A stretch of DNA of 64,000 nt from Paracoccaceae bacterium. Its GTDB lineage: Bacteria; Pseudomonadota; Alphaproteobacteria; Rhodobacterales; Rhodobacteraceae. This document shows, piece after piece, positions 5,285-42,646 of this stretch. The stretch covers positions 1,438,209-1,502,208 of the forward strand of contig OZ254079.1 in assembly GCA_965267475.1 (NCBI GenBank). Reading direction: 5' to 3'. Positions within the stretch are counted from its first letter, which is position 1; every line of letters starts with the position of its first letter. The notes beneath the pieces are model-generated. The model had not been told where the DNA came from. It did no database searches and saw only the letters and a program-made list of their open reading frames with translations. Made by a program: the position numbers and the translations under genes.

Positions 5285-6526
5285 TTAGCGAGAACTTTTT
5301 TGTTGTGCGTCCGCGCGGGCAAGCTGAGCTTCCCGCCGAGTGACGTAAACAATTGAAAGAAGGCCAAAAAAGGCGGATGTGAACATGACCGCGACCAGCG
5401 GGGTCGCAGACACCGACAGATCCAGCGCGCCGCCCGTAACGGCCGAAAGGATGGCGCCGCCGCCCACCATGAAGGCGCTTCCCAGGCCCGACGCCGTGCC
5501 CGCCAGATGCGGGCGCACCGACAACATGCCCGCTGAAGCGTTGGGAATGACCAACCCGTTCCCGAGCCCGACCGTCACGCAAAACGCGAAGAACGTGAAA
5601 GCTGTTTGCAGGCCGGCAATCGACAGGATCAGCGACAGGCCCATGCCGAAGGCCGTGATCAACGTGCCGTTCAGCACCATGCGGTTGACACCAATGCGGG
5701 CGGAAAACCGGCCGGACAGGAAGTTCCCCGTGGCATACCCGATCGCCGGGGCGCCGAAGCCGATGCCGGACCAGAAGGCGGACAGGCCAAAGACATCGCG
5801 CGCGACGATGGGTCCGCCGCCGAGAAACGCGAAAAAGGCGCCCGATGCGAAAGCCGCAGCCGCCACGTAGCCCCAGAACCGGCGCGACAGAAGAAGCTCG
5901 GGATACTCGGCCACCTGGTCGCGAAACCGCGCGGATCTGTGCTGCGCCGTCTCGCCAAGATCGGCGAAAGAGATCGCAAAGACGCCGAGGCCGAAGGCGA
6001 TCGTGAAGAGGAAGGTCGATTGCCAGCCGAAGGCTTCCTCCAACGCGCCGCCAATCATCGGGGCGACCATCGGAACAAGGGCCATCCCCATGGTAACATA
6101 GCCGATCTGCGACGCGGCCATGTCTTGCGGGAACATGTCGCGGATGATGGCGCGCGACAACACAAGCCCAACGACCACCGCGCCCTGGATCATGCGGAAC
6201 GCCAGGAAGACCTCGACCGTGGGCGCAAGGACGCAGCCGATGCTTGCGGCAACGAAGATCGCCAGGCAAGTCAGCGTCACCGGGCGGCGCCCGAAGCGGT
6301 CAGAGACCGGGCCAATGATCAACTGCAAAAGTGCGGTGACGCCCAGATAGGCCGAGACGGCAAGCTGGATCACCGCATAATCCGCCCGGAAATGCGTGGC
6401 CATCGAGGGCAACGACGGCAAGAAGACACTCATGTTCATGGCTCCGAGACCGGCCAGCAGAACAAGCGTCGTGATGTGGGGCGGTGTGGTCCGGTTCAGA
6501 TACCGGACGGTCGCGGCATCCGTCAT
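5285..6526 (-). CDS. MFS transporter (Bcr/CflA-like drug efflux type)
   Basis: Twelve TM-like segments and a GPVSDRFGRRPV loop motif. I set the start at MTDAATVRYL (6526) rather than the track start at 6619. Confidence 0.8.
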   Translation of the reverse strand: MTDAATVRYLNRTTPPHITTLVLLAGLGAMNMSVFLPSLPSMATHFRADYAVIQLAVSAYLGVTALLQLIIGPVSDRFGRRPVTLTCLAIFVAASIGCVLAPTVEVFLAFRMIQGAVVVGLVLSRAIIRDMFPQDMAASQIGYVTMGMALVPMVAPMIGGALEEAFGWQSTFLFTIAFGLGVFAISFADLGETAQHRSARFRDQVAEYPELLLSRRFWGYVAAAAFASGAFFAFLGGGPIVARDVFGLSAFWSGIGFGAPAIGYATGNFLSGRFSARIGVNRMVLNGTLITAFGMGLSLILSIAGLQTAFTFFAFCVTVGLGNGLVIPNASAGMLSVRPHLAGTASGLGSAFMVGGGAILSAVTGGALDLSVSATPLVAVMFTSAFFGLLSIVYVTRREAQLARADAQQKSSR

Positions 6527-6737
6527 GGGGCCTGCGCTATCCAGTTTCCGGATCGGTGTCCACGCACGCGCCGCTGTGCGCAGTTGCGGGTTCGCATACG
6601 CGTAACCGCGGGGCCCCAAAATCTTACCTAAGATTTTTGCGCCGCGCCGGGCCGCGGGACTGCGCCCAAGGATGTTTCGCCTTTGCCCCGGCGCGCCGCT
6701 TCGATATCAGATTTGGAAAGGACGAAGGGACCGAACC

Positions 6738-8270
6738 ATGACGGATGTCTTGAGCGAACTCGAAGCCCGGCGTGCGGGCGCCCGTGCGGGTGGCGGCGAG
6801 AAGCGGATCGCGGCGCAACACGCCAAGGGCAAGCTGACGGCACGCGAACGGCTGGAATTGCTTCTGGACGAAGGCAGCTTCGAAGAATTCGACATGTTCG
6901 TGGCCCACCGCACCACCGATTTCGGCATGGACAAGCAGAAGTTTCCGGGCGACGGCGTCGTCACGGGCTGGGGCACGATCAATGGCCGCCAGGTCTATGT
7001 CTTTTCGCAGGATTTCACCGTGCTTGGTGGATCGGTGTCGGAAACCCACGCCCAGAAAATCTGCAAGATCATGGATATGGCCGTGCAGAACGGCGCGCCG
7101 GTCATCGGGTTGAACGATTCCGGCGGCGCGCGGATCCAGGAAGGTGTGGGGTCGCTCGCGGGCTATGCCGAGATCTTTCAGCGCAATATCGAAGCGTCGG
7201 GCGTGATCCCGCAGATCTCCGTGATCATGGGGCCATGCGCGGGGGGCGCTGTCTATTCGCCCGCCATGACCGACTTCATCTTCATGGTGAAGGATTCGTC
7301 ATACATGTTCGTGACCGGGCCCGATGTGGTGAAGACCGTGACCAATGAGGTCGTGACCGCGGAAGAACTGGGCGGTGCGTCAACCCATACCAGGAAATCC
7401 TCGGTCGCTGATGGGGCGTTCGAAAATGACATCGAGGCGCTGGCCGAAGTGCGGCGTCTTTTCGATTTCCTGCCTTTGTCAAACCGCGAAAAGCCGCCGG
7501 TCCGGCCCACATTCGACACGGCCGAGCGGATTGAAAACAGCCTTGATACGCTGATCCCCGCCAATCCGAACCAGCCTTATGATATGAAGGAACTTATCAC
7601 CAAGGTGGCTGACGAAGGAGACTTCTATGAAATTCAGGAAGATTACGCCGGAAACATCGTCACCGGATTTATCCGTCTGGAGGGCTCTACGGTCGGGGTC
7701 GTCGCGAACCAACCGATGGTTCTGGCGGGCGTACTGGACATCGATTCCTCGCGTAAGGCGGCGCGCTTCGTCCGGTTTTGCGATGCCTTTGAAATCCCGA
7801 TCCTGACGCTTGTGGACGTGCCGGGGTTCCTGCCCGGGACGGCGCAGGAGTATGGCGGCGTGATCAAGCACGGGGCGAAACTGCTCTTTGCCTATGGCGA
7901 GGCGACGGTGCCCAAGGTGACCGTGATCACCCGCAAGGCCTATGGCGGGGCCTATGACGTGATGGCGTCGAAACATGTGAAGGCCGACATCAACTATGCC
8001 TGGCCCTCGGCCGAGATCGCGGTGATGGGCGCCAAGGGCGCGACCGAGATCCTGTACCGGTCAGAGCTGGGCGATACCGAAAAGATCGCGGCGCGCACCA
8101 AGGAATACGAAGACAACTTCGCCAACCCGTTCAAGGCAGCCGAGCGCGGCTTCATCGATGAGGTGATCATGCCCCATTCGACCCGGCGTCGCGTGGCCCG
8201 GGCCTTTGCAGCTTTGCGGGGCAAGAAGGCGTCGATGCCCTGGAAGAAGCACGACAATATTCCGTTGTAA
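6738..8270 (+). CDS. pccB: propionyl-CoA carboxylase beta (carboxyltransferase) subunit
   Basis: 510 aa from [52 protein letters not shown], the typical PccB N-terminus. RBS ggacgaaggga. The track start at 6672 is a spurious extension. Confidence 0.93.
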
Positions 8271-10158: not shown

Positions 10159-12252
10159 ATGTTCAAGAAGATCCTGATCGCCAATCGCGGAGAAATTGCC
10201 TGCCGTGTGATGAAAACGGCCAAGAAGATGGGGATCGGGACGGTTGCTTTGTACTCCGATGCCGATGCGGGCGCGCTGCATGTGAAGATGGCCGATGAGG
10301 CCGTGCATATCGGCCCTCCGCCTGCCAACCAGTCCTATATCGTCATCGACAAGGTGATGGCGGCGATCAAGGAAACGGGCGCCGAGGCCGTGCATCCGGG
10401 GTATGGCTTTCTGTCCGAGAACCCGAAATTCGCCGAAGCGCTTGAGGCGGCGGGGGTCGCCTTTATCGGTCCGCCGAAAGGCGCGATCGAGGCCATGGGC
10501 GACAAGATCACATCTAAAAAGATCGCCCAAGACGCCGGTGTCTCGACCGTTCCGGGCTATATGGGCCTGATCGGCGATGCCGAAGAGGCCAAGAAAATCG
10601 CCGGCGAAATCGGCTATCCGGTGATGATCAAGGCCTCTGCCGGGGGCGGCGGCAAGGGCATGCGGATCGCCTGGTCGGAAGATGAGGTGGCCGAGGGGTT
10701 TCAGTCGTCGAAGAACGAAGCGGCGGCATCCTTTGGCGATGACCGGATCTTCATCGAGAAATTCGTGACCCAGCCCCGCCATATCGAAATTCAGGTGCTG
10801 GCCGACAGCCATGGCAACTGCGTCTATCTGGGCGAGCGGGAATGTTCGATCCAGCGCCGAAACCAAAAGGTGATCGAAGAGGCGCCGTCGCCTTTTCTGG
10901 ACGAAGCCACGCGGAAGGCCATGGGCGAACAATCCTGCGCGCTGGCCAAGGCCGTGGGTTATACCTCGGCGGGCACAGTCGAGTTCATCGTCGATGGGGA
11001 CCGGAACTTCTATTTCCTGGAAATGAACACACGTTTGCAGGTCGAACACCCGGTGACGGAACTGATCACCGGCGTTGATCTGGTCGAACAGATGATCCGG
11101 GTCGCCAATGGTGAGGCGCTGTCGATCACCCAATCGGATGTGAAGCTGAACGGCTGGGCGATGGAATCGCGCCTTTATGCCGAAGATCCTTATCGCGGGT
11201 TTTTGCCGTCCATCGGGCGGCTGACGCGGTATCGCCCGCCCGCCGAGACGGAAGGCTACACACCGGGCGTCGTGCCTGATGCGCCGGTCGTGCGGAATGA
11301 CACGGGCGTTTTCGAGGGTGGTGAGATCAGCATGTTCTATGACCCGATGATCGCCAAACTTTGCACCTGGGGGCCCGACCGTGCGGCGGCGATTGAGGGG
11401 ATGCGGGCGGCGCTGGACGCATTCGAAGTCGAAGGGATCGGCCATAATATCCCCTTCCTGTCAGCGGTTTACGACCATCCGAAGTTCATCGCGGGCGATA
11501 TCACGACGGCGTTTATAGCCGAGGAATACCCCGACGGGTTTGAAGGGGTGGAGCTGCCCGAGTTCAGTTTGGCTCAGATCGGCGCGGTGGCGGCGGTCAT
11601 GAAAGCGATCTCACAGGAGAGATCTGCGCTATCAACAGTACGAATGAGTGAGCCTCGTCCAGTTTATGGATATGAAGTCCTTCTACCTTCCGCGAAGTAT
11701 AAGTTCATATGGGACTGCTATCCATACTTCCAGTTTCATGAATTCAAGGACCTTGGGGGGCAGCGGTACTTTCGAACGTTCGTTACAGACCAAACCGGAC
11801 GGAACTTTTCATTCGGTTTGGACTGGTTGCCGGGTGAACAGATGGCGCGCGTCCTAGCGATTGATGCGGAAATGGACGACCTCGACTACGTTGGACCACC
11901 GTTGATGGTGCTGAAGGTCGAACCACGCACCAACGGTTTCCGCATCCGCTATCGTGGTGCCGATCTTGACGTGAAAGTTCTGACTCCACGTCAGGCCGAA
12001 CTTGCCGCCCGCATGCCCGAGAAGGTGGCGCCCGATACCTCAAAACTGCTCCTTTGTCCCATGCCCGGCCTTGTCGTGAAGATCGACGTGGAAGAGGGCC
12101 AGGAAGTGCAGGAAGGCCAAGCGCTCTGCACCGTCGAGGCGATGAAGATGGAAAACATCCTCCGCGCCGAAAAGAAGGGCACAATCGCCAAGATCAACGC
12201 AGCGGCGGGCGACAGCCTGGCCGTCGATGAGGTGATCATGGAGTTTGAGTAG
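10159..12252 (+). CDS. pccA: propionyl-CoA carboxylase alpha (biotin carboxylase/BCCP) subunit
   Basis: MFKKILIANRGEIACRVMKTAKKMGI N-terminus, ATP-grasp GGGGKGMR, and C-terminal biotinyl motif EAMKMEN. RBS ggaggggg. See the finding on the atypical codon patch. Confidence 0.93.
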   Translation: MFKKILIANRGEIACRVMKTAKKMGIGTVALYSDADAGALHVKMADEAVHIGPPPANQSYIVIDKVMAAIKETGAEAVHPGYGFLSENPKFAEALEAAGVAFIGPPKGAIEAMGDKITSKKIAQDAGVSTVPGYMGLIGDAEEAKKIAGEIGYPVMIKASAGGGGKGMRIAWSEDEVAEGFQSSKNEAAASFGDDRIFIEKFVTQPRHIEIQVLADSHGNCVYLGERECSIQRRNQKVIEEAPSPFLDEATRKAMGEQSCALAKAVGYTSAGTVEFIVDGDRNFYFLEMNTRLQVEHPVTELITGVDLVEQMIRVANGEALSITQSDVKLNGWAMESRLYAEDPYRGFLPSIGRLTRYRPPAETEGYTPGVVPDAPVVRNDTGVFEGGEISMFYDPMIAKLCTWGPDRAAAIEGMRAALDAFEVEGIGHNIPFLSAVYDHPKFIAGDITTAFIAEEYPDGFEGVELPEFSLAQIGAVAAVMKAISQERSALSTVRMSEPRPVYGYEVLLPSAKYKFIWDCYPYFQFHEFKDLGGQRYFRTFVTDQTGRNFSFGLDWLPGEQMARVLAIDAEMDDLDYVGPPLMVLKVEPRTNGFRIRYRGADLDVKVLTPRQAELAARMPEKVAPDTSKLLLCPMPGLVVKIDVEEGQEVQEGQALCTVEAMKMENILRAEKKGTIAKINAAAGDSLAVDEVIMEFE

Positions 12253-19594: not shown

Positions 19595-21160
19595 CTAGCC
19601 TTGGACCACCTCGGTCGTGGCGCCAATGGCGTTCGCGAGTGAGGCAAAGCGCGCCTCGGCCACTTCGCCGAACAAGGGCGCCGTCCCCGGGGCCAGATGG
19701 AAACTCAAAAGCTTCTTTCTGGGCCGCCACTTCAACATGCCCATCCGGTCCGAGGCCGCGACCGAAAACATGGACCCAAACCGCATGGCTTTGCCAAGGG
19801 TCTCGGCTTCGCGAAGCCGGTCGTCGTCGAGCAGCCCGAAGAGATCCTCGAACCGCGAATCCGAATGGCTGTTCTTGTAGCGGTGCAGCAATGCGATCCC
19901 CAGAAACACCCGTTCCTTGTGGGTCAGACCGCCCAAGTTCGCACGCGTCGCGTTGTCAAAGCAAACCTCATGCCGGTAATCGGGATGCGCCCGCCAACTG
20001 ACATCGTGCAGAAGGCAGGCCGCGTGATGAATCCGGCGCGACTCGTCACTGGCTTTCGGAAAGAGCGGCGACACAAAGTCGAAAAGCTGTGTGCCGAAGC
20101 CGGGGTTCCGGGCATCTTTCTGTTCCGAGAACCGGCAGGCCTCGATCAGCGGGTCGCGGGCCCGAAGGTCATCCGACATGCGTTCATAAAGCAGCCCTTC
20201 ACGCAACCCATAGCTGGAGACCGCAATGTCATGGGGCCGGAAGGTTTTGGTGATCACGCCCAACACTTCCGAGGCGATCGGCACAAGCGCCATCCGCGCC
20301 TCGGACAGCCCCGCTGCCTGGCGAAGTTGCTCAAGGTCTTGTTTTTGAATGAATTTAATGGTGCGCGACACGTCGGAACGCGTCATCCGATACTCGTGCA
20401 AAACCGACAGTGGATAGTCGCGACGGATCATGTCGATCCGGGCGATGGCGCGCCAGGAGCCGCCGACCAGGAACAGCCGGTCGGATTGCGGACCGAGCGT
20501 TTCCATCAATTCGGCCACGACCGTCTGGATCTCGGCTTGGCGCCCTTTGCGCCCGCCTTTGACACCGCGCAGCGAAAACGGACCCAGTTGCGACGTGATC
20601 CGCTTGCCGACCTTGCCATCGGACAGTTCGGCCAACTCCATCGAGGATCCACCGATGTCGCAGACAAGCCCGTAAGAGCCCGGCCACCCCAGAAGCACGC
20701 CCTGGGCAGAAAGGCGCGCTTCTTCGCGGCCGTCGATGACCTGAACGTCAAGGCCAGTGGCCTGCATGACATCGTCTCGGAAGGCAGGTCCATCCTCGGC
20801 TTCCCGCACCGCCGCAGTCGCCACAATGCTGAGCCGGTCAATTCCCATGCCCTCGGCCAGATGCTGGAAACGTATAAGTGCCGATAGAGCGCGCGCGCGC
20901 CCTTCCGGGTTCAATTGTCCGGTTTCTGCAAGTCCCCGACCGAGGCCGCACATGATTTTCTCGTTATAGAAATAGGCCGGGCTGCGGGCTGCACCGTCAA
21001 AGACCACAAGCCGGACCGAGTTTGATCCGACATCAACGACGCCGACACGCGACAGGGCCTGGGTCGCCGGATCTTCCCTGGATCCGGTCCTGGCGCGAGT
21101 CTTGGCTGGCGTGTCCCCGCCTCCGTCCATGGCTGATCCCTTGGTTCCTTGGCGGAACAC
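19595..21160 (-). CDS. ppx: exopolyphosphatase (Ppx/GppA family)
   Basis: VDVGSNSVRLVV ASKHA-fold phosphate-1 motif, DIGGGS-like DIGGSS, and a C-terminal HD-like region (HHAACLLHDVS). Immediately downstream of ppk1. The start may be Met11. Confidence 0.88.
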   Translation of the reverse strand: MFRQGTKGSAMDGGGDTPAKTRARTGSREDPATQALSRVGVVDVGSNSVRLVVFDGAARSPAYFYNEKIMCGLGRGLAETGQLNPEGRARALSALIRFQHLAEGMGIDRLSIVATAAVREAEDGPAFRDDVMQATGLDVQVIDGREEARLSAQGVLLGWPGSYGLVCDIGGSSMELAELSDGKVGKRITSQLGPFSLRGVKGGRKGRQAEIQTVVAELMETLGPQSDRLFLVGGSWRAIARIDMIRRDYPLSVLHEYRMTRSDVSRTIKFIQKQDLEQLRQAAGLSEARMALVPIASEVLGVITKTFRPHDIAVSSYGLREGLLYERMSDDLRARDPLIEACRFSEQKDARNPGFGTQLFDFVSPLFPKASDESRRIHHAACLLHDVSWRAHPDYRHEVCFDNATRANLGGLTHKERVFLGIALLHRYKNSHSDSRFEDLFGLLDDDRLREAETLGKAMRFGSMFSVAASDRMGMLKWRPRKKLLSFHLAPGTAPLFGEVAEARFASLANAIGATTEVVQG

Positions 21161-21182
21161 TGCCCCGGCAAGCGGGCTTGCG

Positions 21183-23372
21183 TCAATCGCTGTGCTTCAA
21201 GAGCGGTGGCTCAAGGCTGGCGGCAGTGCCGCGCCCGCTAAGCGAATGCGTCTCCATGAAAAACCGGTGGCAGTCGAAGCCGATCTCACCGGGGTCGCGA
21301 TCGGGCCGGTGGAACCGGCCATCGGGCGCAAGGATCCAACTTTGCACGTTGTCGGCGAGATTGGCGGCCATGATCTGGTTGACGATCTGCGCCTTGACAG
21401 TGTCGTTGGTGATTTCGACCAGCGTTTCGACGCGGCGGTTCAGGTTCCGGTCCATCCAGTCCGCCGAAGAGATATAGACGCGCGCGTGGCCGGAAGCATC
21501 CCGCGGCCGTTTTGGAAGACCCTTGCCGTTTCCAAAACAGACGATCCGCGAATGTTCGAGGAACCGGCCCACCACAGACTTGACGCGAATGTTGTCGGAC
21601 AGGCCCCGGATCCCCGGGCGCAGACCGCAAATGCCGCGCACCACAAGATTGATCCGCACGCCGGCCTGGCTTGCCAGATACAGCGCGTCGATCACGTCCT
21701 TTTCGATCAGCGAGTTCATCTTGCCCCAGATCTCGGCCGGGCGGCCCGCCAAGGCGTGCTCTGCCTCATCCGTGATCCGTTCCAGAAGCGTGTTCTTCAG
21801 GCCCGAGGGCGAAATCGACAGGTTTTCCAACCGTTCCGGTTGGGCATAGCCCGACAGATAGTTGAAGACCCGCGTCGCGTCGCGGCCAAGGCCCGGATCG
21901 CAGGTGAAAAGGCTGAGATCCGTATAGATGCGCGCCGTGATCGGGTGGTAATTCCCGGTCCCGTAATGGGTATAGGTCACCAGATCCCCGCCTTCGCGGC
22001 GCACCACAGTCGAGATCTTCGCGTGGGTCTTGTAGTTCATGAACCCATAGACGACATGCGCCCCGGCCCGTTCCAGGCGGCGTGACTGGCGAATGTTCGC
22101 GGCTTCGTCGAAGCGGGCTTTGAGTTCCACAAGCGCCGTCACAGACTTGCCGTCCTCGGCCGCTTCGCAGAGCGCCTCGACAATCGGGCTGTCGCGCGAC
22201 GTCCGATAAAGCGTCTGCTTGATGGCCATCACGTTCGGGTCGCGGGCGGCCTGCTGAAGAAAGCGCACCACCATATCGAACGTCTCATAAGGGTGGTGCA
22301 GCAGCATGTCCTTCTGGCGGATCGCCGCGAACATGTCGCCATCATGATCCTGCACGCGTTCAGGAACGCGAGGCGTGAATGATGGCCAAAGAAGCTCGGG
22401 CCGTTCATCCAGCACCAGTTCCTTCAGATCGCCCATGCCCAGAAGGCCGTCGATCTCAACCACTTCGGCCTCGGTGATCTCAAGTTCTTCCAGGATCATT
22501 GCACGAAGGGCCCGGGGTGCCAGCGACGATATGGTGAGCCGGATCACCTCGCCCCTGCGGCGGCGTTTCAGCGCGACCTCGAACTCGCTGACCAGGTCTT
22601 CGGCTTCCTCTTCGACTTCAAGGTCGCTGTCGCGAAGGACCCGGAAGGCGCATTGATCCTTAACGGCATAGCCCGGGAACAGGCTGTCCATATGCAAAAG
22701 CAGCAGTTCTTCCAGCATCAGGAAACGCTGCGTACCGTTCGCTGAAGGCAGCCGCATGAAGCGGTCGACCTGATGCGGGACTGGCAGCAGGGCCTGAAGT
22801 TTGCGCCCATCGGATTTGCGTTCGAGCTGAAGCGCCAGGGACAATCCACCATTGGCAATGAACGGGAACGGATGGGCCGGGTCGATGGCAAGCGGCGACA
22901 GGATCGGGAAGACCTGCCTTAGGAAGACCTGTTCCAGATGCGCCTTGTCTTCCACTGTCAATGCGGAGCGACACACGATGGAAATGCCCACATGCTCCAT
23001 CTCGGCCAGCAGGCGCGACCAGATATCCAGCTGCGATTGCATGAGGGCGCGTGCATCGGCGTTGATCAGGACAAGCTGATCGGCCGGGCTGCGCCCGTCG
23101 AGCGCCGGGGTGGTGTTGCCGGCATGGGCCAATTCGCGCAGACCCGCCACGCGTACCGTAAAGAACTCATCCAGGTTCGTCGCCGAAATCGACAAGAACC
23201 GCACCCGTTCCAGCAAGGGAACGGCGGGATTGTCGGCCTCTTCCAAAACCCGCCAGTTGAAGGCCAGCCAGCTTAGTTCCCGATTGAAAAAGCGGCTTGG
23301 GCCGTCCGGATCGACATCGTCAAGCGACACCGCTGGCGGCAGAGGGGAATTCAGAAAATCGGTACGACTCAT
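21183..23372 (-). CDS. ppk1: polyphosphate kinase 1
   Basis: 729 aa from [30 protein letters not shown]-terminus, and the autophosphorylated His region NYKTHAKIS. Confidence 0.93.
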
Positions 23373-23412
23373 GGGCGTTACATGCCTGCACACTGGTACG
23401 GAGGGGTGACAA

Positions 23413-25949: not shown

Positions 25950-26975
25950 ATGACCGAAATCCCCATCGTCTGGCTTGTCACGGCTTTGGCAAGCATTGCG
26001 GTCGTTGTCATCGCCCGCGCGGCGCGATTGACGGATCCGTCGCGCCTGTTCCTGGCCTTCGGCGTGGCTGGGATCGGCGTTCTCGGGCTTCTTCTGGGCC
26101 TTCGTCTGTCGTTCGAGCGGGACTGGGCGGGCTTTCTTCAGCCCTTGGTCGGCCTGACAACCGCACCGGCCTTGTACCTTGGGCTCGACGCGTTGACCCG
26201 CGACGGACCCTATCCGTGGCGGTCGGTTCTTGTCTGGCACTGGGTTCCCATATCTCTTTTGGGCCTCGGAATACTGACCACCGGGTTCTGGCTTGCGGAT
26301 TTCGCGATTCCGCTGGTGACCCTTGTTTATATTGGGCTTTTGTCGCGCCTCGCGCTTCGCCCACTTGAAGCCTTCGTTCATGTGGCGCCGCGCGATCAGC
26401 CGGTGGTCAAGGCACTTGTCCTGGGCGTGATCGCGCTTTTTTCGTTCTTCCTTCTGGCGGATGTGGTGATCTTCGCCGCGCTTGCCACGGGCGGGCCCGA
26501 TGCGGTGCCGGGTCTTGTCGGCAATGCGGCCATGGCGCTGACGGTGCTTGTCTTCCTCGCTGCCTTGTTGGGCGGGCCCGCCCTTTTGTCGCGACGCGAC
26601 GGGAGAGAGGCGCCGGTGGCCCGCGCCGCCGAGGTCACGGAAGAGGACCGGGCGCTTCTGGCCCGGTTCGATGCCCTGATGCGCGACACGAAGCTATTCA
26701 CCGATAGCGGACTGACCCTGGCCCGGGCGGCCCGCCGACTGGGTGTCCCGGCCCGTCGCGTGTCAGAGGCGATCAACCGGGTCGCAGGCACTAACGTGTC
26801 GCGTCACATCAACGGTTTTCGCGTGGCCCATGCGCAGGATTTGCTTCGAACGACCGATTTGCCCGTCACCGAGGTGATGTTGGAGGCCGGATTTCTGTCG
26901 AAATCGACCTTCAACACCGAGTTTCGGCGGATCACCGGGCAAACGCCGTCGACGTTTCGGGCTACACTGGCCTGA
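25950..26975 (+). CDS. membrane-anchored AraC-family transcriptional regulator
   Basis: About 6 N-terminal TM segments. C-terminal AraC HTH (LARAARRLGVPARRVSEAINR...GFLSKSTFNTEFRRITGQTPSTFR). Confidence 0.82.
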   Translation: MTEIPIVWLVTALASIAVVVIARAARLTDPSRLFLAFGVAGIGVLGLLLGLRLSFERDWAGFLQPLVGLTTAPALYLGLDALTRDGPYPWRSVLVWHWVPISLLGLGILTTGFWLADFAIPLVTLVYIGLLSRLALRPLEAFVHVAPRDQPVVKALVLGVIALFSFFLLADVVIFAALATGGPDAVPGLVGNAAMALTVLVFLAALLGGPALLSRRDGREAPVARAAEVTEEDRALLARFDALMRDTKLFTDSGLTLARAARRLGVPARRVSEAINRVAGTNVSRHINGFRVAHAQDLLRTTDLPVTEVMLEAGFLSKSTFNTEFRRITGQTPSTFRATLA

Positions 26976-27480: not shown

Positions 27481-27673
27481 CGGTCTGTCCTTTCGGCGTT
27501 ACGCGGGGCGTCGCCCGCTTGATGACACCGAGTTGCGCTGCCGCGCGGATTTCCGCGCCCGAAGACGCGATGTCGAACGTTCGGAAACGCATTTCCGAAC
27601 CTCGGCCTGGCCGCGGTTGCAGAGGTCGGACTGTCGCCTTAGACCGGGTTCACCTGAATTCCGGAGTCTTGCG

Positions 27674-29011
27674 ATGCGCCTCAGCCGTTACTTCCTGCCC
27701 GTCCTGAAAGAGACGCCGTCCGAGGCGCAGATCGTCTCGCATCGCATGATGTTGCGCGCCGGTATGATCAAACAGTCGGCCGCCGGGATCTATTCCTGGC
27801 TACCCTTTGGCCTGCGCGCGCTGCAAAAGGTCGAAAAGATTGTCCATGAGGAGCAAATTCGCGCGGGTCACCACCCGATGTTGATGCCGACGCTGCAATC
27901 GGCGGATCTGTGGCGCGAAAGCGGGCGTTATGACGACTATGGCGAAGAAATGCTGCGGATGCAGGACCGGCACGGGCGCGACATGCTGTTCACGCCCACC
28001 GCCGAGGAACTGATCACTGATATTTTCCGGGCCCATGTGACCAGTTATCGCGATTTGCCGCTGACCATGTATCAGATCCAGTGGAAGTTCCGCGATGAGA
28101 TCCGTCCCCGGTTCGGCGTGATGCGCGGTCGCGAGTTCTACATGAAGGATGGCTATAACTTCGATCTGACCAAGGAAGACGCGCTGCATGCCTATAACAG
28201 GCATCTGGTCAGCTATTTGCGGACCTATGAGCGCATGGGGCTTCAGGCGATCCCGATGCGTGCAGATAGCGGGCCCATTGGCGGCGATGATACGCACGAA
28301 TTCCTTGTTCTGGCCGAGACTGGCGAAAGCGAAGTCTTCTATGACAGCAATGTCACCGACATCCGGCTGGGTGAGCGCGACATCGATTATGACGACAAGG
28401 CGCAGTGCCAAGCCGTTCTGGAAGAGTTCACGACGCTTTACGCCCGCACCGACGAAACCCATGATGAAGCGCTGTTCGACCAGGTCCCGGAAGGCCGAAA
28501 GCGCAGCGCGCGCGGGATCGAAGTTGGCCAGATCTTCTATTTCGGCACCAAGTATTCCGAACCCATGGGCGCCACCGTCCAGGATGCCGACGGAAACGCC
28601 GTGCCGGTCCATATGGGATCGCACGGAATCGGCGTGTCACGGCTTCTGGGCGCGATCATCGAAGCCAGCCATGACGACAACGGTATCATCTGGCCCGAAG
28701 GTGTGGCGCCGTTCCCTGTCGGGATCGTCAACCTGCGTCAGGGGGATGCTGCGACCGATGGCGCCTGCGACGGGCTTTACGCTGCGCTGGCGGCGAAGGG
28801 GCTTGAACCCATGTACGACGACCGAGACGAGCGGGCAGGGGCCAAGTTCGCGACCATGGACCTGATCGGCCTGCCCTGGCGGATCACCGTGGGCCCGCGC
28901 GGGCTGGACAAGGGTGTGGTCGAACTGACCTCGCGCAGAACCGGTGATAGCGAAGAATTGTCGCCTGAGACCGCGGTTGACCGCCTAGTGCAGATTTACG
29001 ACGGCGTTTGA
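27674..29011 (+). CDS. proS: proline--tRNA ligase (short alphaproteobacterial type)
   Basis: 445 aa from [34 protein letters not shown]. Class II motifs ([17 protein letters not shown]; GIGVSR). The track start at 27356 adds 106 spurious residues. Confidence 0.93.
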
Positions 29012-29068: not shown

Positions 29069-29581
29069 ATGATCGTCAGAGCCATCGCATTGGCCGCCGG
29101 GATCGCCGGCGGCGCCGGGCTGTCGCAGTTTCCGGAGTTTTCGCAGCAATACTTGCAGCGGCTGTCGGGCGCCGTAGACGAACTGCGCGGAGTGGTGACG
29201 GCCTTTGACGTGGCGGCCACCGCGGCGGGGTTGTCTCGGGAAGAGGCGCTGGCCGAGCTGCAGGGGACCGATCTGACGAATGAGCTGCGCCAGAACATCG
29301 CCGGGACGGTTGCGCGATACGATCGATTGAGCGCCGATTATCAACATCTGCGCGACGCAGGGCCCATCACGCGGCTTGCGCAGCCCTGGAATTTGGCGGA
29401 CCGCACGCTTCTGAACCGCACCTGGGACGATTTCCGACCGGCCATTCCGGTCACTTTGGACGGGTTGATCTGCTCCGGAATTGGATTTCTCGCCGGTTGG
29501 CTGGCGGCATCAACCCTTCTTGGACTTTTTTTTCGGCCCTTTCGGCGAAAGAATTCGGGAAATCTGCGGCCCTTCCTGTAA
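29069..29581 (+). CDS. DUF2937-like membrane protein
   Basis: MIVRAIALAAGIAGGAGLSQFPEFSQQYLQRLSGAVDEL, the N-terminus I associate with DUF2937. C-terminal TM segment. Confidence 0.65.
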   Translation: MIVRAIALAAGIAGGAGLSQFPEFSQQYLQRLSGAVDELRGVVTAFDVAATAAGLSREEALAELQGTDLTNELRQNIAGTVARYDRLSADYQHLRDAGPITRLAQPWNLADRTLLNRTWDDFRPAIPVTLDGLICSGIGFLAGWLAASTLLGLFFRPFRRKNSGNLRPFL

Positions 29582-29820
29582 GATTTACCACCACATTCCC
29601 AAACCCCGCCCTGTTAAGTGCCTAGATTCTAAGGAAACGCGCGCGTAGGGGCTGCGTTTTCCAGTTCAAGGTTTCTCACGCGTTTTAGATGTGCGCGGAT
29701 GCGCAGAACGCTGTTTCGAAACGGCCTTACATCCGCTCTCGCACAGCATATCTCAGCGTCATCGGAAGGCAGACACACCTTCCACTGACATGAAACAGAC
29801 TGACACTAAGGATAGACCAA

Positions 29821-30312
29821 ATGAAACTCGCACTGACAACCGCACTCGTTCTCGCCGCAGCCGCACCGGCTTTCGCATCGAACCAACTGGCCCTGTCGCT
29901 CGGCGTTGAGCCTGGCACAGCCACCGTCCAGGAACTGGCCGTTCTGAAGTCCACGATTGAATCTTCGGACAACGGCAACGCCTTCGCTTTTGACGGCGTG
30001 AAAGCCAAGATCAACGGCGACGTTGTTTCGACCCAGTCGGTCGCAGGCAACAGCCAGCTGGCCGCATCTCTCGGCGTCACCGGCACGGTCGGCGAATTGG
30101 CCGCTCTGAAAGGCGCGATCGAAAGCGCTGACGACAACAACATCGCAGCTGACGGCATCCGTGCCCGCCTGGCTGGCGACGTTGTCTCGACGCAGAGCGT
30201 GATCACTCCGGGCCACGAGCAGTTCGCTGCTTCGCTGGGTGTCTCGGCTCAGGACTATTCGGTTCTTGAACTGATCGAGCTGAAGTCGCGCATCGAAGAA
30301 GACCGCGACTAA
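29821..30312 (+). CDS. secreted three-repeat protein of unknown family, copy A (163 aa)
   Basis: RBS aaggat. Signal peptide MKLALTTALVLAAAAPAFA. Three internal repeats of QLAxSLGV-x(5-8)-ELAxLKxxIESxD. Confidence 0.8.
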   Translation: MKLALTTALVLAAAAPAFASNQLALSLGVEPGTATVQELAVLKSTIESSDNGNAFAFDGVKAKINGDVVSTQSVAGNSQLAASLGVTGTVGELAALKGAIESADDNNIAADGIRARLAGDVVSTQSVITPGHEQFAASLGVSAQDYSVLELIELKSRIEEDRD

Positions 30313-30327
30313 TCTTCTCCTCCCCGA

Positions 30328-30366
30328 CGGGCCTGGGTCCCTCTCCCTCCCTCCCTGCCAGGCCCG
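30328..30366 (+). ncRNA. C/U-rich stem-loop in 3' UTR (candidate 3'-UTR-derived sRNA module), copy A
   Basis: 9-bp stem cgggcctgg / ccaggcccg. It encloses the 21-nt loop gtccctctccctccctccctg and is preceded by cttctcctcccc. Confidence 0.4.
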
Positions 30367-30374
30367 ACACAACA

Positions 30375-30407
30375 CCGGCCTCTGCGTCCCCACGCAGAGG
30401 CCGGTTT
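30375..30407 (+). terminator. rho-independent terminator, copy A
   Basis: 12-bp stem ccggcctctgcg / cgcagaggccgg, loop tcccca, then ttt. Confidence 0.8.
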
Positions 30408-31064
30408 ACGTTTGTGGGGCGCGCGCGCCGGATCCCGCCCACCCGGACGTATCCGGGGTGCCCGTTGATGCGGCCGAACCCTGTGCGAGACCCTGTGCCC
30501 GGCGATCGGAAGAGCGCCCTAGTAATAGACGCCATATCTGACGACGCCGCCGGCATAGCACCCTGTATCCGATTACCGCAGAGGGCGCGCCATGATCGGG
30601 GTCTTGGCGTTTCAGAATGACCCACAGGCTCAGACGGAAAGCCTCGCACAGTCGGTTCCGGCTGCCGGGTTGGGGCGTTTGTTCGGCCCCATGGCAGGCA
30701 TGTTCGTCCGATTGGCAGCGCATAGCCGCCTTCAAGGGGTGCCCAGATCTTTTTTCAAAAAGATTCTGAAAAAAGATTTTGAAACTTCCCCGCTGAATTT
30801 CAGGAGAAGCGGCCCCAAATCTGTAAGAATTCGGTCTCACGCGTCTGTGAAAACGCTCTAGAGTACTGAAAATAAATACTTTTGGCGAATAGGCTCTTCG
30901 ACGCGGGGTTCAAGGTTTCTCACGCGTTTTAGATGTGCGCGGATGCGCAGAACGCTGTTTCGAAACGGCCTTACATCCGCTCTCGCACAGCATATCTCAG
31001 CGTCATCGGAAGGCAGACACACCTTCCACTGACATGAAACAGACTGACACTAAGGATAGACCAA

Positions 31065-31556
31065 ATGAAACTCGCACTGACAACCGCACTCGTTCTCGCC
31101 GCAGCCGCACCGGCTTTCGCATCGAACCAACTGGCCCTGTCGCTCGGCGTTGAGCCTGGCACAGCCACCGTCCAGGAACTGGCCGTTCTGAAGTCCACGA
31201 TTGAATCTTCGGACAACGGCAACGCCTTCGCTTTTGACGGCGTGAAAGCCAAGATCAACGGCGACGTTGTTTCGACCCAGTCGGTCGCAGGCAACAGCCA
31301 GCTGGCCGCATCTCTCGGCGTCACCGGCACGGTCGGCGAATTGGCCGCTCTGAAAGGCGCGATCGAAAGCGCTGACGACAACAACATCGCAGCTGACGGC
31401 ATCCGTGCCCGCCTGGCTGGCGACGTTGTCTCGACGCAGAGCGTGATCACTCCGGGCCACGAGCAGTTCGCTGCTTCGCTGGGTGTTTCGGCTCAGGACT
31501 ATTCGGTTCTTGAACTGATCGAGCTGAAGTCGCGCATCGAAGAAGACCGCGACTAA
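31065..31556 (+). CDS. secreted three-repeat protein of unknown family, copy B (identical protein)
   Basis: Protein identical to copy A. The single coding difference is synonymous (GTC/GTT Val). Confidence 0.8.
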   Translation: MKLALTTALVLAAAAPAFASNQLALSLGVEPGTATVQELAVLKSTIESSDNGNAFAFDGVKAKINGDVVSTQSVAGNSQLAASLGVTGTVGELAALKGAIESADDNNIAADGIRARLAGDVVSTQSVITPGHEQFAASLGVSAQDYSVLELIELKSRIEEDRD

Positions 31557-31571
31557 TCTTCTCCTCCCCGA

Positions 31572-31610
31572 CGGGCCTGGGTCCCTCTCCCTCCCTCCCT
31601 GCTAGGCCCG
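31572..31610 (+). ncRNA. C/U-rich stem-loop in 3' UTR, copy B
   Basis: Same as copy A. The one substitution (C to T at 31603) changes a G-C pair to G-U, so the stem is preserved. Confidence 0.4.
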
Positions 31611-31618
31611 ACACAACA

Positions 31619-31651
31619 CCGGCCTCTGCGTCCCCACGCAGAGGCCGGTTT
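31619..31651 (+). terminator. rho-independent terminator, copy B
   Basis: Identical to copy A. Confidence 0.8.
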
Positions 31652-31677
31652 ACGTTTGTGGGGCGCTGGAAAGGTGA

Positions 31678-32595
31678 CTAGCGAAGAGCAGACGTGGCCA
31701 AGCGCGGCATGTGGCGTTCAACTTCGGGCTGGCGCATCCCGGACCGCAAGGCCGGATCGTACAACATCTTCAGCAGCGCTTCGTCATGCTTTGTCAGCAC
31801 ACCGTAGCGTTCGTTGTCATTGAAGATCGAATGCTGCGCGGTCTTGCAATCGTTCGGCAGGCCCATGCCCTGGGCGAGTTCTTCCTGAATGCAGGATGTG
31901 CGCATCCGGTCGGTATGCTCGGCCCGGATGATCGCCACAGCGCTGCGATAGCCCTTGGTTCGATCCGCATGGGGCACCGAAATGACCATGCAAAGATGGT
32001 TGGGCTGCATCCTGAGGATGCGATTGACAGACGCGTTGCTGATCCCTTCGACATTGGTCTTCAGGAATTGGCCTATCCCGCGGCGTTCGCCATCAGACAC
32101 AACCAGAATGTGGAAGTTGGCATCGCGGGCCACGGGCGCGATCGGATGCCGGGCCACCCCGGAGAGGTGGTTGAAATAGCTGCCGATCGCCTGTTTGTCG
32201 CGGGCGCGCTGCGCATCTGACACGGAGGCACCGAATGCCACCGAATAGCGGACCGGTACTTCCCAGCGCATCATAGGTTGCGACCCAGAAGCCCCATATT
32301 CGTGCCGCATCGCGATTTCGAAGAAGTTGTGGGCCAGGCGTGCAGGCGTCAATGCCATGGACGCAGGCGCGCGGTCCTGGCGAAGGTACCCTGATGATAC
32401 GAGCGATTCTTGCATAGAGGCGTAGTGCCGCGCCAAAGGGGTGGCATAGAGGCCGATCCCGGGCATTTTCGACTTAACGGATGCACTTTCGGCTGCAAGG
32501 CTTTGCGGGAAAAGCGAAATCGCGGCGCAGGTCAGCGCAGCCATCACGGTCTTTTTCCAGACGTATCCAGTCGCTTTCGCGGCTGTTCCTTGCAT
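31678..32595 (-). CDS. DUF2927-like exported protein
   Basis: Start set at MQGTAAKATGYVWKKTVMAALTCAAISLF (signal-like). Body motifs SCIQEELAQGMGLPNDC and HSIFNDNE match my recollection of DUF2927. The track start at 32778 is probably an extension. Confidence 0.6.
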   Translation of the reverse strand: MQGTAAKATGYVWKKTVMAALTCAAISLFPQSLAAESASVKSKMPGIGLYATPLARHYASMQESLVSSGYLRQDRAPASMALTPARLAHNFFEIAMRHEYGASGSQPMMRWEVPVRYSVAFGASVSDAQRARDKQAIGSYFNHLSGVARHPIAPVARDANFHILVVSDGERRGIGQFLKTNVEGISNASVNRILRMQPNHLCMVISVPHADRTKGYRSAVAIIRAEHTDRMRTSCIQEELAQGMGLPNDCKTAQHSIFNDNERYGVLTKHDEALLKMLYDPALRSGMRQPEVERHMPRLATSALR

Positions 32596-32997
32596 GCGCG
32601 GCCCCTTTCGCAGTGTCAGGAGCAGACAGTAGGACACGATTTCGCGATCTGGCAAGGGGGTCGGCGCAATGCCGGCAGACTTGACCTTGCGGCAACGCGG
32701 GAACGCATCTTCGTGCGCAGTCGTCAGATGATCCGCTGAATTGAAAGCCCGGGTCGCGGAAAAAGCTGGGAGAGCCATTTTGGATTCCGCGTAAGCCTTT
32801 GAAAAAAATTTACATTTTGCGCGCGCGGGTCCGGCCGTTCAGGTCAAGGAACCTCACGCAAATGCTTTGTGCGGAAACGCGCGAAACCCTGTCTCAAAAC
32901 GGGTCTTAGCAGGGCAGTTGCACAGCATACCTAGGCGTCAATCAAACCCGAAACAGCCATGTCCAAATCCAGCAGATTGACCAGAAGGATCCCAGCT

Positions 32998-33357
32998 ATG
33001 ACCAGAACTGCCCTTACGTTTGCCCTTGTTCTTGTTACTGCCGCCCCAGCCTTTGCGACCGAACAGCTTGCGCGGTCGCTTGGTGTGATCCCCGGTATCG
33101 CATCGCTCGGAGAGCTGGCGCTTCTCAAGTCCACGTTGGAAAGTGAAGACGACAACAACAACCGCGACTTCCGCTATCGACGGGACCGCCTGAACGCGCG
33201 TGCGATGGTCGAGGGCTTCGATCTGTCGCCGGACCACTTGCGTTTGGCCGCGTCGCTTGGCGTCCGGGCGCAGGATCACTCGGTTGCCGATCTTCTGGAG
33301 ATGCACGCAGACCGGAAGGCCCGCCGCGAGGCACGCCGCGCTTTTTGGCGCCGCTGA
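32998..33357 (+). CDS. divergent paralog of the secreted repeat protein (119 aa)
   Basis: RBS gaaggat. Signal MTRTALTFALVLVTAAPAFA. EQLARSLGVIPGIASLGELALLKSTLESEDDNN and LRLAASLGVRAQDHSVADLLEM repeats. Basic C-terminal tail. Confidence 0.7.
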   Translation: MTRTALTFALVLVTAAPAFATEQLARSLGVIPGIASLGELALLKSTLESEDDNNNRDFRYRRDRLNARAMVEGFDLSPDHLRLAASLGVRAQDHSVADLLEMHADRKARREARRAFWRR

Positions 33358-41785: not shown

Positions 41786-42646
41786 ATGCCCGACGGAAAA
41801 CTGACCCTGGACGCACCGATCGCGGACCCGAATGCGGTGGAGGCGGGCACCTACCCGTATGACACCAAGCTGTCACGCCGCACGTATGAGACGCAGAAGG
41901 CCAAGTTGCAGGCTGAATTGCTGAAGGTGCAGCGCTGGGCGCAGGAGACGGGGCAGAAGTTCGTCCTGATCTTCGAAGGTCGGGACGCGGCGGGCAAAGG
42001 CGGCACGATCAAACGGTTTACCGAGCATCTGAACCCGCGCGCCGCGCGTGTCGTGGCACTGAACAAGCCATCGGACGAAGAACGCGGCCAGTGGTTCTTT
42101 CAGAGGTATATCAAAGGTTTGCCGACATCGGGCGAAATGGTGTTTTATGACCGGTCCTGGTACAACCGGGCCGGGGTCGAGCGTGTGATGGGGTTCTGCA
42201 CGCCGAACGAGTACCTGGAATTTATGCGCCAGACGCCAGAGATGGAGCGCATGCTCGTCCGGTCTGGCATACGGCTTTACAAATACTGGTTCTCGGTCAC
42301 GCAGGACGAACAGCACGCGCGGTTCAAAAGCCGCGAAACCGATCCGTTGAAACGGTGGAAGCTGAGCCCGATCGACAAGGCGTCTCTGAACAAATGGGAT
42401 GACTATACCGAAGCGAAAGAGGCGATGTTCTTCTATACGGACACAGCCGATGCGCCCTGGACCATCGTCAAATCCAACGACAAGAAGCGTGCGCGACTTG
42501 CCTGCATGATGTATTTCCTGAATTCGTTGGATTATCCGGGCAAGGACACCGCGCTGGTCAAGGCGCCTGATCCCTTGATTGTTGGGCCGGCAGAGCATGT
42601 CGTGCACCAATCAGACCATGCGTTGGGGCGATCGCTGCACCCTTAG
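41786..42646 (+). CDS. ppk2: polyphosphate kinase 2
   Basis: FEGRDAAGKGGTIKR Walker A, QRYIKGLPTSGEMVFYDRSWYNRAGVERVMGF, and WKLSPIDK, all typical PPK2 motifs. Confidence 0.9.
   Translation: MPDGKLTLDAPIADPNAVEAGTYPYDTKLSRRTYETQKAKLQAELLKVQRWAQETGQKFVLIFEGRDAAGKGGTIKRFTEHLNPRAARVVALNKPSDEERGQWFFQRYIKGLPTSGEMVFYDRSWYNRAGVERVMGFCTPNEYLEFMRQTPEMERMLVRSGIRLYKYWFSVTQDEQHARFKSRETDPLKRWKLSPIDKASLNKWDDYTEAKEAMFFYTDTADAPWTIVKSNDKKRARLACMMYFLNSLDYPGKDTALVKAPDPLIVGPAEHVVHQSDHALGRSLHP

Follow-up and report, generated by a model that had tools for sequence, protein, structure and literature searches.

The subject of this analysis is a pair of near-identical 759-bp units in a 64,000-nt stretch of DNA from a Paracoccaceae bacterium (assembly GCA_965267475.1, contig OZ254079.1, positions 1,438,209 to 1,502,208), which we refer to as the window. 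Each unit holds a regulatory region, the gene of a predicted secreted repeat protein, a 3′ untranslated region (UTR) and a terminator. We conclude that the near-identity is probably that of an old duplication, tandem but spaced, which comprised a complete transcription unit and whose copies have been kept almost identical by recurrent homologous recombination (interlocus gene conversion). The mechanism is well known, and the gene family on which it acts here is unstudied.

Two copies of a probable transcription unit

The two copies form a direct repeat with an offset of 1244 nt. When they were compared base by base, 757 of 759 positions were identical (99.74%), and outside both repeat ends identity dropped at once to random level. 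A match of 759 bp at 99.7% excludes a chance origin.

Copy A, 29664 to 30422, plus strand: 759-bp unit of regulatory region, gene, 3′ UTR and terminator; exact ends, 757/759 positions shared with copy B
Copy B, 30908 to 31666, plus strand: 759-bp unit with T at 31487 and T at 31603 as compared to copy A
Spacer, 30423 to 30907, no strand: 485 bp between the copies, apparently non-coding; an A/T-rich block at about 30745 to 30790 is kept in the related locus L001

The first difference (C at 30243, T at 31487) is the third base of codon 141, where GTC and GTT both encode valine, and is synonymous. The second (C at 30359, T at 31603) lies in the 3′ arm of a 3′-UTR stem (30328-30336/30358-30366), in which the pair G26-C50 becomes G-U; RNAfold folded both copies into the same 9-bp stem despite the C/T change. 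An earlier note on the window had described 759-bp segments with exactly these two differences, and both the comparison and the folding bear this out. The same note regarded each copy as a complete expression unit, which is supported by the location of the predicted promoter elements, the open reading frame (ORF) and the terminator, all of them inside the repeat. At its left end (GTTCAAGG) the repeat coincides with the first block that is conserved family-wide, and its right end lies 17 nt beyond the terminator stem. The spacer contains an 89-aa (amino acid) ORF without a Pfam match.

Near-identical repeats are a classic source of assembly errors, and the second copy could in principle be a false duplication. 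This is very unlikely, because the copies differ at two positions, have unique flanks and are separated by a unique 485-bp spacer, the source contig is 3.76 Mb long, and the copy-spacer-copy layout recurs in another species that was assembled independently.

The pair of copies is older than the split from the closest relative found

We compared the window genome with fetched loci of the gene family, which carry L-numbers, and with family proteins, which carry P-numbers. The closest relative found was P0002, a protein 82% identical to that of the window, which is encoded on L001, a 21.7-kb contig of a metagenome-assembled genome (MAG). The gene order on L001 (proS, an unannotated 307-aa ORF, a DUF2937 gene and the family gene) is the same as in the window, and proS of the two genomes is 81.5% identical in DNA, with a synonymous divergence (dS) of 0.87. 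On L001 the gene is followed by a spacer of about 470 bp and then by a second copy, 115 nt into which the contig stops. Within the spacers, 10936-11017 of L001 is 76% identical to 30769-30850 of the window.

Copies A and B were aligned with copies 1 and 2 of L001. In this four-way alignment the 115-nt core contained nine species-specific sites (A equal to B and copy 1 equal to copy 2) and no copy-specific sites; the count leaves out six end-gap columns, with which the script total was 15. In the distal upstream flank, 17 sites were copy-specific (A equal to copy 1 and B equal to copy 2) versus a single species-specific site, and two indels of about 21 nt were common to A and copy 1, and to B and copy 2. 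The copy-specific flank sites and shared indels indicate that copy B and copy 2 of L001 are orthologous, and that the pair is therefore older than the split between the two genomes, as also seen from the 76% identical spacer block. The core, on the other hand, is identical within each genome and different between the genomes. This is the signature of gene conversion and indicates that the core was homogenised separately in each lineage. Paralogues are accordingly closer to each other within a genome than to their orthologues: copies A and B are 99.7% identical and have one synonymous coding difference, whereas the window and L001 are about 85% identical, with a dS of 0.34 for the gene (0.87 for proS). 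The similarity between the copies reaches about 30-47 nt further upstream in L001 than in the window, which fits independent conversion events.

The earlier note had proposed either a very recent duplication or ongoing gene conversion. Conversion stands; a recent origin does not, because the pair predates the split from L001, as dated by proS, and its copies are identical per genome. The note had also described the flanks as unrelated. Residual homology between the flanks of the window itself is indeed not significant, which explains this view, but the four-way alignment with L001 reveals the upstream flanks as ancient, heavily diverged paralogues. As for copy number in related genomes, L001 has the same copy-spacer-copy layout as the window (with 115 nt of the second copy) and L036 has a single copy.

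Very recent duplications that occurred independently in the window genome and in L001, in which case identity would merely reflect youth, would account for the 99.7% identity, the abrupt repeat ends, the lack of significant similarity between the window flanks and the single copy in L036. We consider this very unlikely, since independent duplications would not yield the same spacer. Moreover, orthology between the genomes extends to the spacer and to the flank of the second copy (17 versus 1 sites, shared indels, 76% block), and all nine core substitutions between the genomes are common to both copies of each.

Old duplication followed by gene conversion would also explain where the repeat ends. 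Conversion requires homology, and flanks that have diverged without constraint would leave the tract anchored only in sequence conserved by selection, so that it would probably be limited to the stretch kept similar by purifying selection. If limited by homology, the tract is expected to end at the first conserved regulatory block and at the terminator, which makes a site-specific mechanism unnecessary. Both copies would probably have been retained through selection for high output, because without it direct repeats at a distance of 1.2 kb would be prone to collapse into a single copy.

Outside the units, we observed an A/T-rich block (TTTTTTC...AAAAAAGATTTTGAAA) about 120-160 nt 5′ of each copy (30745-30790 and 29520-29565) in this genome of 61% G+C. 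The block is common to the spacers of the window and of L001 (about 10936-11017 in the latter).

Comparison with known cases of concerted evolution

Concerted evolution by gene conversion is textbook knowledge for tufA/tufB in Salmonella and Escherichia coli and for the rRNA operons. As in these cases, the paralogues in the window and L001 are near-identical per genome while orthologues differ, the duplication is older than the split, and the tract has defined ends in diverged flanks. The known cases are also highly expressed and have biased codon usage, and the same is probably true of the window unit, as judged from its sequence. In contrast to tufA/tufB, the unit encodes a small secreted protein and comes with its own promoter, UTRs and terminator. 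In addition, the two copies are only 1.2 kb apart in direct orientation, and a third paralogue 1.9 kb away has escaped homogenisation. The locus is thus a clean and datable example of bacterial concerted evolution that involves a whole promoter-to-terminator unit and not a housekeeping gene, with tract ends that are the ends of constrained sequence.

An unannotated family of putatively exported repeat proteins

The two copies encode the same protein.

Coding sequence of copy A, 29821 to 30312, plus strand: 163 aa, from ORF and translation; ratio of nonsynonymous to synonymous divergence (dN/dS) of 0.26 versus the L001 orthologue
Coding sequence of copy B, 31065 to 31556, plus strand: identical protein, from ORF and translation

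The dN/dS of 0.26 indicates that this is a real coding gene under purifying selection. The protein starts with a predicted Sec-type signal peptide (MKLALTTALVLAAAAPAFA/S, ending AFA/S), which is followed by three repeats of about 50 aa with the pattern QLAxSLGVxPGxYSxxELxxLKxxxExxD and then GDVVSTQS. AlphaFold, when run with an alignment of 90 sequences, predicted three confident helix-loop-helix modules with low-confidence linkers and without packing between the modules (mean predicted local distance difference test score, pLDDT, 69.7; predicted template modelling score, pTM, 0.32). The model obtained with 20 sequences was poorer (pLDDT 61). The mRNA would encode a small acidic protein that is exported via Sec and consists of three independent helix-loop-helix modules on flexible VVSTQS linkers.

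The earlier note had suggested a Pfam search with the 163-aa protein; when this was done no family was found, and there was likewise no match above threshold in NCBIfam, PADLOC or the sequences of the PDB, or with Foldseek against the PDB. Neither the window protein nor P0001 was on record when looked up as an exact protein, a metagenome scan for close relatives returned none, and the plasmids of PLSDB showed no similarity at either the protein or the DNA level. The family comprises 585 cluster representatives (50% clustering), and its named members all belong to the Rhodobacteraceae/Paracoccaceae.

Spy and CpxP are small, stress-induced periplasmic helical proteins that consist of one cradle-shaped domain. 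By analogy only, the family protein is likewise small, all-helical according to the model and Sec-exported, and is probably strongly expressed from a stress-type promoter. Unlike Spy and CpxP, it is predicted to have three separate modules on flexible linkers, and it has no sequence or fold similarity to solved structures.

A predicted promoter of conserved architecture and an operator-like palindrome

About 26 upstream regions of family genes, whose proteins are down to about 35% identical, were aligned, with the promoter alignment anchored on the motif TCATC. The alignment revealed a common architecture, which consists of a CAAGG-N4-5-CTCAC block, a palindrome, a -35-like and a -10-like element, TCATC, a hairpin, a CA-rich tract, a Shine-Dalgarno (SD) sequence and the ATG.

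Operator-like palindrome, 29690 to 29705 (copy B 30934 to 30949), no strand: TGTGCGCGGATGCGCA, consensus TGTGC-N6-GCRCA, at a fixed distance 5′ of family genes whose proteins are about 35-85% identical
Inferred core promoter, 29726 to 29753 (copy B 30970 to 30997), plus strand: -35-like CTTACA at 29726-29731 and -10-like GCATATCT at 29746-29753, from the family alignment
Inferred start region and 5′ hairpin, 29759 to 29783 (copy B 31003 to 31027), plus strand: invariant TCATC at 29759-29763 and hairpin GGAAGG/CCTTCC at 29764-29769/29778-29783, present in 13/13 leaders

The palindrome is two-fold symmetric, (A)TGTGC-N6-GC(A/G)CA, and its central bases are changed between the window and L001 while the half-sites are unchanged. 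It starts 68-72 nt 5′ of TCATC, or 79 nt in three loci, which is about one helical turn more. The exact palindrome occurs at 20 sites in the 486 kb of loci and window together, and 17 of these are upstream of family genes. Within the window it is found solely upstream of the three family genes.

A scan with the sigma-70 consensus found no promoter. The family alignment instead contains two blocks, TTG/TTA and CCCCATnT/GCATATCT, that are spaced as in sigma-32 promoters and have a matching distance to the conserved TCATC, so the promoter appears to be sigma-32-like. In Rhodobacter sphaeroides, promoters of RpoHI/HII carry TTG at -36 to -34, and A-12 and T-9 are critical. Based on the sigma-32 geometry, transcription would start inside TCATC, the 5′ UTR would be about 60 nt long and the centre of the palindrome would be located near -63.5, a class-I activator position. 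What the earlier note had described as a 157-nt leader is then probably about 97 nt of promoter and regulatory DNA plus this 5′ UTR of about 60 nt, as judged from family-wide conservation.

Since variable loop lengths of the 5′ hairpin defeat alignment with MAFFT and RNAalifold, each leader was folded individually and compared to dinucleotide shuffles. A hairpin directly after TCATC was present in all 13 distinct leaders, with a mean z of -3.0. The stems differ among the leaders and covary (GGAAGG/CCTTCC, GGCGGG/CCCGCC, GGCGC/GCGCC, GGAGG/CCTCC, GGGCG/CGCCC). Further downstream, the SD sequence AAGGA is located at 29808-29812. In the 5′ UTR between the hairpin and the SD sequence (29784-29806) we noticed repeated CUGAC/ACUGACA motifs; the leader of L003 has four consecutive CTGAC, and other family leaders carry (CA)n tracts instead.

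In the proposed mechanism, a dimeric helix-turn-helix activator would bind TGTGC-N6-GCRCA near -63 and would aid RNA polymerase at a promoter that is weak and whose -10 element is sigma-32-like. The transcript would begin in the conserved TCATC and open with the 5′ stem-loop, which could stabilise the mRNA.

The palindrome resembles LuxR-type and CRP-type sites in its 16-18-bp two-fold symmetry, its 5-bp half-sites 11 bp apart and its variable centre. Its position 5′ of the -35 region is also that found at promoters with class-I activation. LuxR-type boxes are palindromes of 18-22 bp upstream of the target gene. For instance, the TraR tra box traO (ATGTGCAGATCTGCACAT) has the half-sites of the family consensus (A)TGTGC-N6-GC(A/G)CA, and 10 of 12 half-site positions are identical to traO. 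The likeness to CRP-type sites is nearly as good: the CRP consensus is TGTGA-N6-TCACA, from which the family half-sites differ at one position each (4/5 match). In the window the right half-site is GCGCA, unlike that of the tra box. The sole experimentally defined LuxR site of a roseobacter is not an inverted repeat, and roseobacter LuxR binding sites are essentially undefined.

Several other regulators were rejected. The Iron-Rhodo-box/IscR site is a 19-bp site that overlaps the -35/-10 region, and neither the CenR site (TGA-N8-TGA) nor the Clr core (GTNNC-N4-GNNAC) fits the palindrome. PpsR (TGT-N12-ACA), alpha-proteobacterial LexA (GTTC-N7-GTTC) and EcfG (GGAAC-N16-CGTT) were rejected by inspection. 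Reading the palindrome as a direct repeat (ATGyrC spaced 10 nt) fails in L003, L007, L015 and L026.

The same palindrome (TGTGCGACGCTGCGCA / TGTGCGAGACAGCGCA) is also found in two Tropicimonas species (L004 8070-8085 and L008 8061-8076, minus strand), where it lies about 60 nt 5′ of a degP/htrA-like periplasmic protease gene that adjoins family genes. Possibly, the protease and family genes belong to one envelope-related regulon.

A 3′ UTR that resembles ar14/cuckoo RNAs

3′ UTR, 30313 to 30409 (copy B 31557 to 31653), plus strand: single-stranded CUUCUCCUCCCC tract, hairpin and terminator, from RNAfold and a terminator scan

The hairpin (30328-30336/30358-30366) has a 21-nt C/U-rich loop, GUCCCUCUCCCUCCCUCCCUG, and the terminator consists of a 14-bp G+C-rich hairpin with the loop UCCCC and a T-rich tail (30374-30405 and 31618-31649). 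The stem of the first hairpin covaries (GGGCCTGG/CCAGGCCC in the window, GGACCTGG/CCAGGTCC in L001 and GGACCTG/CAGGTCC in L040), while the C/U loop is kept across these stems. A hairpin with a CU-rich loop is likewise present in L036.

In a targeted search with 151 nt of the window, the best Rfam family was ar14 (RF02344), which matched over the full model length with 28.1 bits (E 6.5e-4), well below its gathering threshold of 58.8 bits. The 3′ UTR of L001 gave the same top family with 23.9 bits. A search of 5 kb at E<=10 missed this match, probably because of speed filters. RNAs of the ar14/cuckoo type have two to four adjacent hairpins, in which every loop carries CCUCCUCCC (PMC4615179). In the window there are two hairpins, and their loops differ from this pattern: the first (GUCCCUCUCCCUCCCUCCCUG) matches CCUCCUCCC at 7/9 positions at best and the second is UCCCC. 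The best match to CCUCCUCCC, 8/9, is the single-stranded UCUCCUCCC directly 3′ of the stop codon. Because the scores are sub-threshold, the first model hairpin is unpaired, the exact CCUCCUCCC is absent and L040 gives no match, the relation to ar14 is one of resemblance and not of membership. Of 25 distinct 3′ UTRs of the family, 9 contain a pyrimidine run whose core is anti-SD-like; the background is 4.4%.

The closest functional analogue is ccaF1-CcsR1-4 of R. sphaeroides (RF02344; PMC8034643, PMC4615179), which also has a small ORF, and whose promoter is RpoH-like, as predicted for the window unit. In that system an RpoHI/HII promoter drives the mRNA of a small protein, and RNase E cuts the 3′ UTR of this mRNA at CUCUUC, ACUUC and similar sites to yield the CcsR RNAs; in the window, UCUUC is located directly 3′ of the stop codon. 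The window unit shares with ccaF1-CcsR, ar14, cuckoo and NfeR the adjacent 3′-UTR hairpins, the C/U-rich anti-SD-like loops, the intrinsic terminator and the membership in a multi-copy family. It differs in its ORF, which encodes a 163-aa exported repeat protein and not a DUF1127 RNA-binding protein as in ccaF1-CcsR, and from the ar14 family in the loops without exact CCUCCUCCC, the score of 28 bits and the unformed first hairpin.

Processing of the 3′ UTR with its C/U-rich, anti-SD-like loops may give rise to a regulatory RNA of the kind seen in ar14/cuckoo. The two identical copies could even be maintained by selection mainly for such an RNase E-released, ar14/cuckoo-like anti-SD regulator and less for the protein, with a bifunctional mRNA as the consequence. 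In favour of this, ar14 is the best Rfam family in both the window and L001, the hairpin covaries with its C/U loop kept, the C/U motif is enriched in family 3′ UTRs, CcsR provides a precedent and UCUUC abuts the stop codon, and cuckoo RNAs are typically multi-copy. We nevertheless regard it as rather unlikely that the RNA is the main reason: besides the low scores and the absence of the exact CCUCCUCCC loop motif, only about one third of the family 3′ UTRs have the motif, and purifying selection and strong codon bias in the coding sequence indicate that the protein matters. An equally tentative proposal is that the unit represents a new cuckoo "nest", i.e. a bifunctional mRNA in which a stress- or signal-activated promoter drives both a secreted three-module protein and an anti-SD small RNA (sRNA) derived from the 3′ UTR. 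In at least three lineages the entire module from promoter to terminator would then have been amplified repeatedly and kept identical to satisfy a demand for high, equal amounts of RNA, protein or both.

The locus marks an unannotated, Rhodobacteraceae-specific family of exported repeat proteins with an unusually well conserved regulatory architecture and, in some members, cuckoo-like 3′ UTRs. The family, this architecture and the cuckoo-like 3′ UTR are undescribed, though not startling. The candidate operator, the predicted transcription start and the candidate sRNA provide experimental handles.

Predicted expression level and near-identical units in other lineages

The codon usage of the gene differs strongly from that of its neighbours. 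Alanine is encoded by GCT or GCA in 17 of 28 codons as compared to 19% in the neighbours, glycine by GGC in 13 of 14, GTT is favoured, and GCG, GGG and GTG are avoided. The dS of the gene between the window and L001 (0.34) is far below that of proS (0.87). Biased codons and a low dS probably mark high expression, as is usual in bacteria. Dosage selection, which the earlier note had suggested, is something that we infer; it is supported by the biased codons and low dS of the gene and by the near-identical units that two other lineages carry in several copies.

The first of these lineages is the MAG CBDICG, in which four dispersed copies on two contigs are 98-100% identical over 847-1275 bp and have nested ends (847, 1124 and 1275 bp). 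The copies are L020, L022, L023 and L024 (about 5656-6931 in each) and include the upstream region and the terminator; L022 and L023 are 100% identical over 1275 bp, and L022 is located between genes of RTX-like calcium-binding proteins. No flanking synteny is shared between this MAG and its relative L015. The second is the P0245 lineage (L039-L046), in which a unit of 1077 bp is 99.3-99.8% identical; it begins about 440 nt 5′ of the gene and extends about 145 nt beyond its 3′ end. It occurs in two upstream contexts (DUF2937 and DUF1801) and two downstream contexts. Between them, the different assemblies contain all four combinations of these flanks, a pattern suggestive of chimeric joining at the repeat. 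The spacer of the window is unrelated to the genes that separate or flank the copies in this lineage. The internal repeats 1 and 2 of the P0245-lineage gene are 85% identical in DNA.

Elsewhere diverged paralogues are kept, for instance in a Tropicimonas tandem pair that is conserved in two species and in two Aliiroseovarius loci with 78% identity. Since near-identical units are found in some lineages and diverged paralogues in others, homogenisation is frequent in the family and not universal.

Units of this kind break or scramble short-read assemblies, as seen in L001 and the P0245 lineage, and under-counting in MAGs follows. The assembly hazard of which the earlier note had warned is therefore real: the L001 contig ends 115 nt into copy 2, and the P0245 assemblies join all four flank combinations. 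About a quarter of the fetched family loci (L001, L012, L015, L016, L018, L031, L032 and L034) lie within about 800 nt of a contig end; this apparent excess, on contigs of 5-100 kb, fits assembly breaks at repeated copies.

Dispersed copies could also point to a non-autonomous mobile or hitch-hiking cassette that is spread by a mechanism acting in trans, with identity due to recent transposition. The MAG whose two contigs carry four dispersed copies of 98-100% identity, and the P0245 lineage with its two flank contexts, are compatible with such a cassette. So are the left ends, which in the window and in L024 versus its paralogues coincide with a (GTT)CAAGG motif or lie no more than about 10 nt from one, and which in the P0245 lineage lie about 16 nt before a second, upstream GTTCAAGG, about 270 nt from the regulatory block; ar14/cuckoo RNAs, too, occur in several copies and neighbourhoods. 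On the other hand, the repeat ends in the MAG are nested and variable, the arrangement in the window and L001 is stable and orthologous across the species split, PLSDB gave no plasmid matches, and ends at constrained sequence are expected from conversion limited by homology. We found no inverted repeats at the unit ends, and the bases next to the two copies showed no evident target-site duplication. The neighbours scanned with Pfam (DUF2937, DUF2927, proS and lolC/D) included neither a transposase nor an integrase, in agreement with the earlier note, which had seen neither a transposase nor insertion sequence ends. Taken together, a mobile cassette is quite unlikely, and gene conversion between old copies remains the preferred explanation.

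Several points weigh against this explanation or against the regulatory model and functions attached to it. The second copy of L001 comprises only 115 nt, so that the demonstration of concerted evolution is confined to the 5′ end of the core, and L001 is a MAG contig, for which a mis-join is unlikely yet possible. In a more distant relative (P0003, 54% identical; L036 and L037) the corresponding slot is occupied by one copy, and the third paralogue is missing; the single copy in L036 could be ancestral or the result of a secondary collapse, and the age of the duplication is fixed only back to the common ancestor of the window genome and L001. With respect to regulation, the -10 element of the window (GCATATCT) fits CCCCATnT less well than that of most family members, and a LuxR-, LuxI- or CRP-type gene was not found among the about 20 window ORFs scanned. 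The ar14 scores are far below the gathering score and were obtained in the targeted search only, the first hairpin of the ar14 model does not pair in the window, and the 3′ UTR of L040 has no ar14 match.

Gene neighbourhood

The gene order in the window is proS (at about 27668-29011), DUF2937, copy A, spacer, copy B, DUF2927 (minus strand), the third paralogue and lolC/lolD.

DUF2937 gene, 29069 to 29581, plus strand: directly 5′ of copy A, syntenic anchor (Pfam E 2.7e-31; same position in L001, L036 and L040)
DUF2927 gene, 31678 to 32778, minus strand: recurrent neighbour of family genes (Pfam E 2e-59)
Third, diverged paralogue, 32998 to 33357, plus strand: 119 aa, P0100; has a CAAGG block and a palindrome (32868-32883) of its own and has escaped homogenisation with copies A and B

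The third paralogue has a palindrome with one mismatch and the -10-like sequence CATACCT, and it is without a 5′ hairpin. Its protein contains only two repeats and a basic tail, and the gene is absent from the L036 relative. A DUF2927 gene adjoins the family gene in the window and in L003, L007, L009, L013 and L036, that is, in at least six loci that differ in other respects, and with two orientations, which suggests that the two genes are functionally linked.

The window has a G+C content of 61%. A tRNA scan found no tRNA gene in it, and a whole-window Rfam scan found no family at gathering level. Further from the units, an AraC-type regulator gene at 25950-26975, 5′ of proS, is syntenic in L001 and absent in L036. 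Among polyphosphate genes, a Pfam match identified PPK2 at 41786-42646, and ppx and ppk1 were assigned to 19595-23393 by synteny with L001 only.

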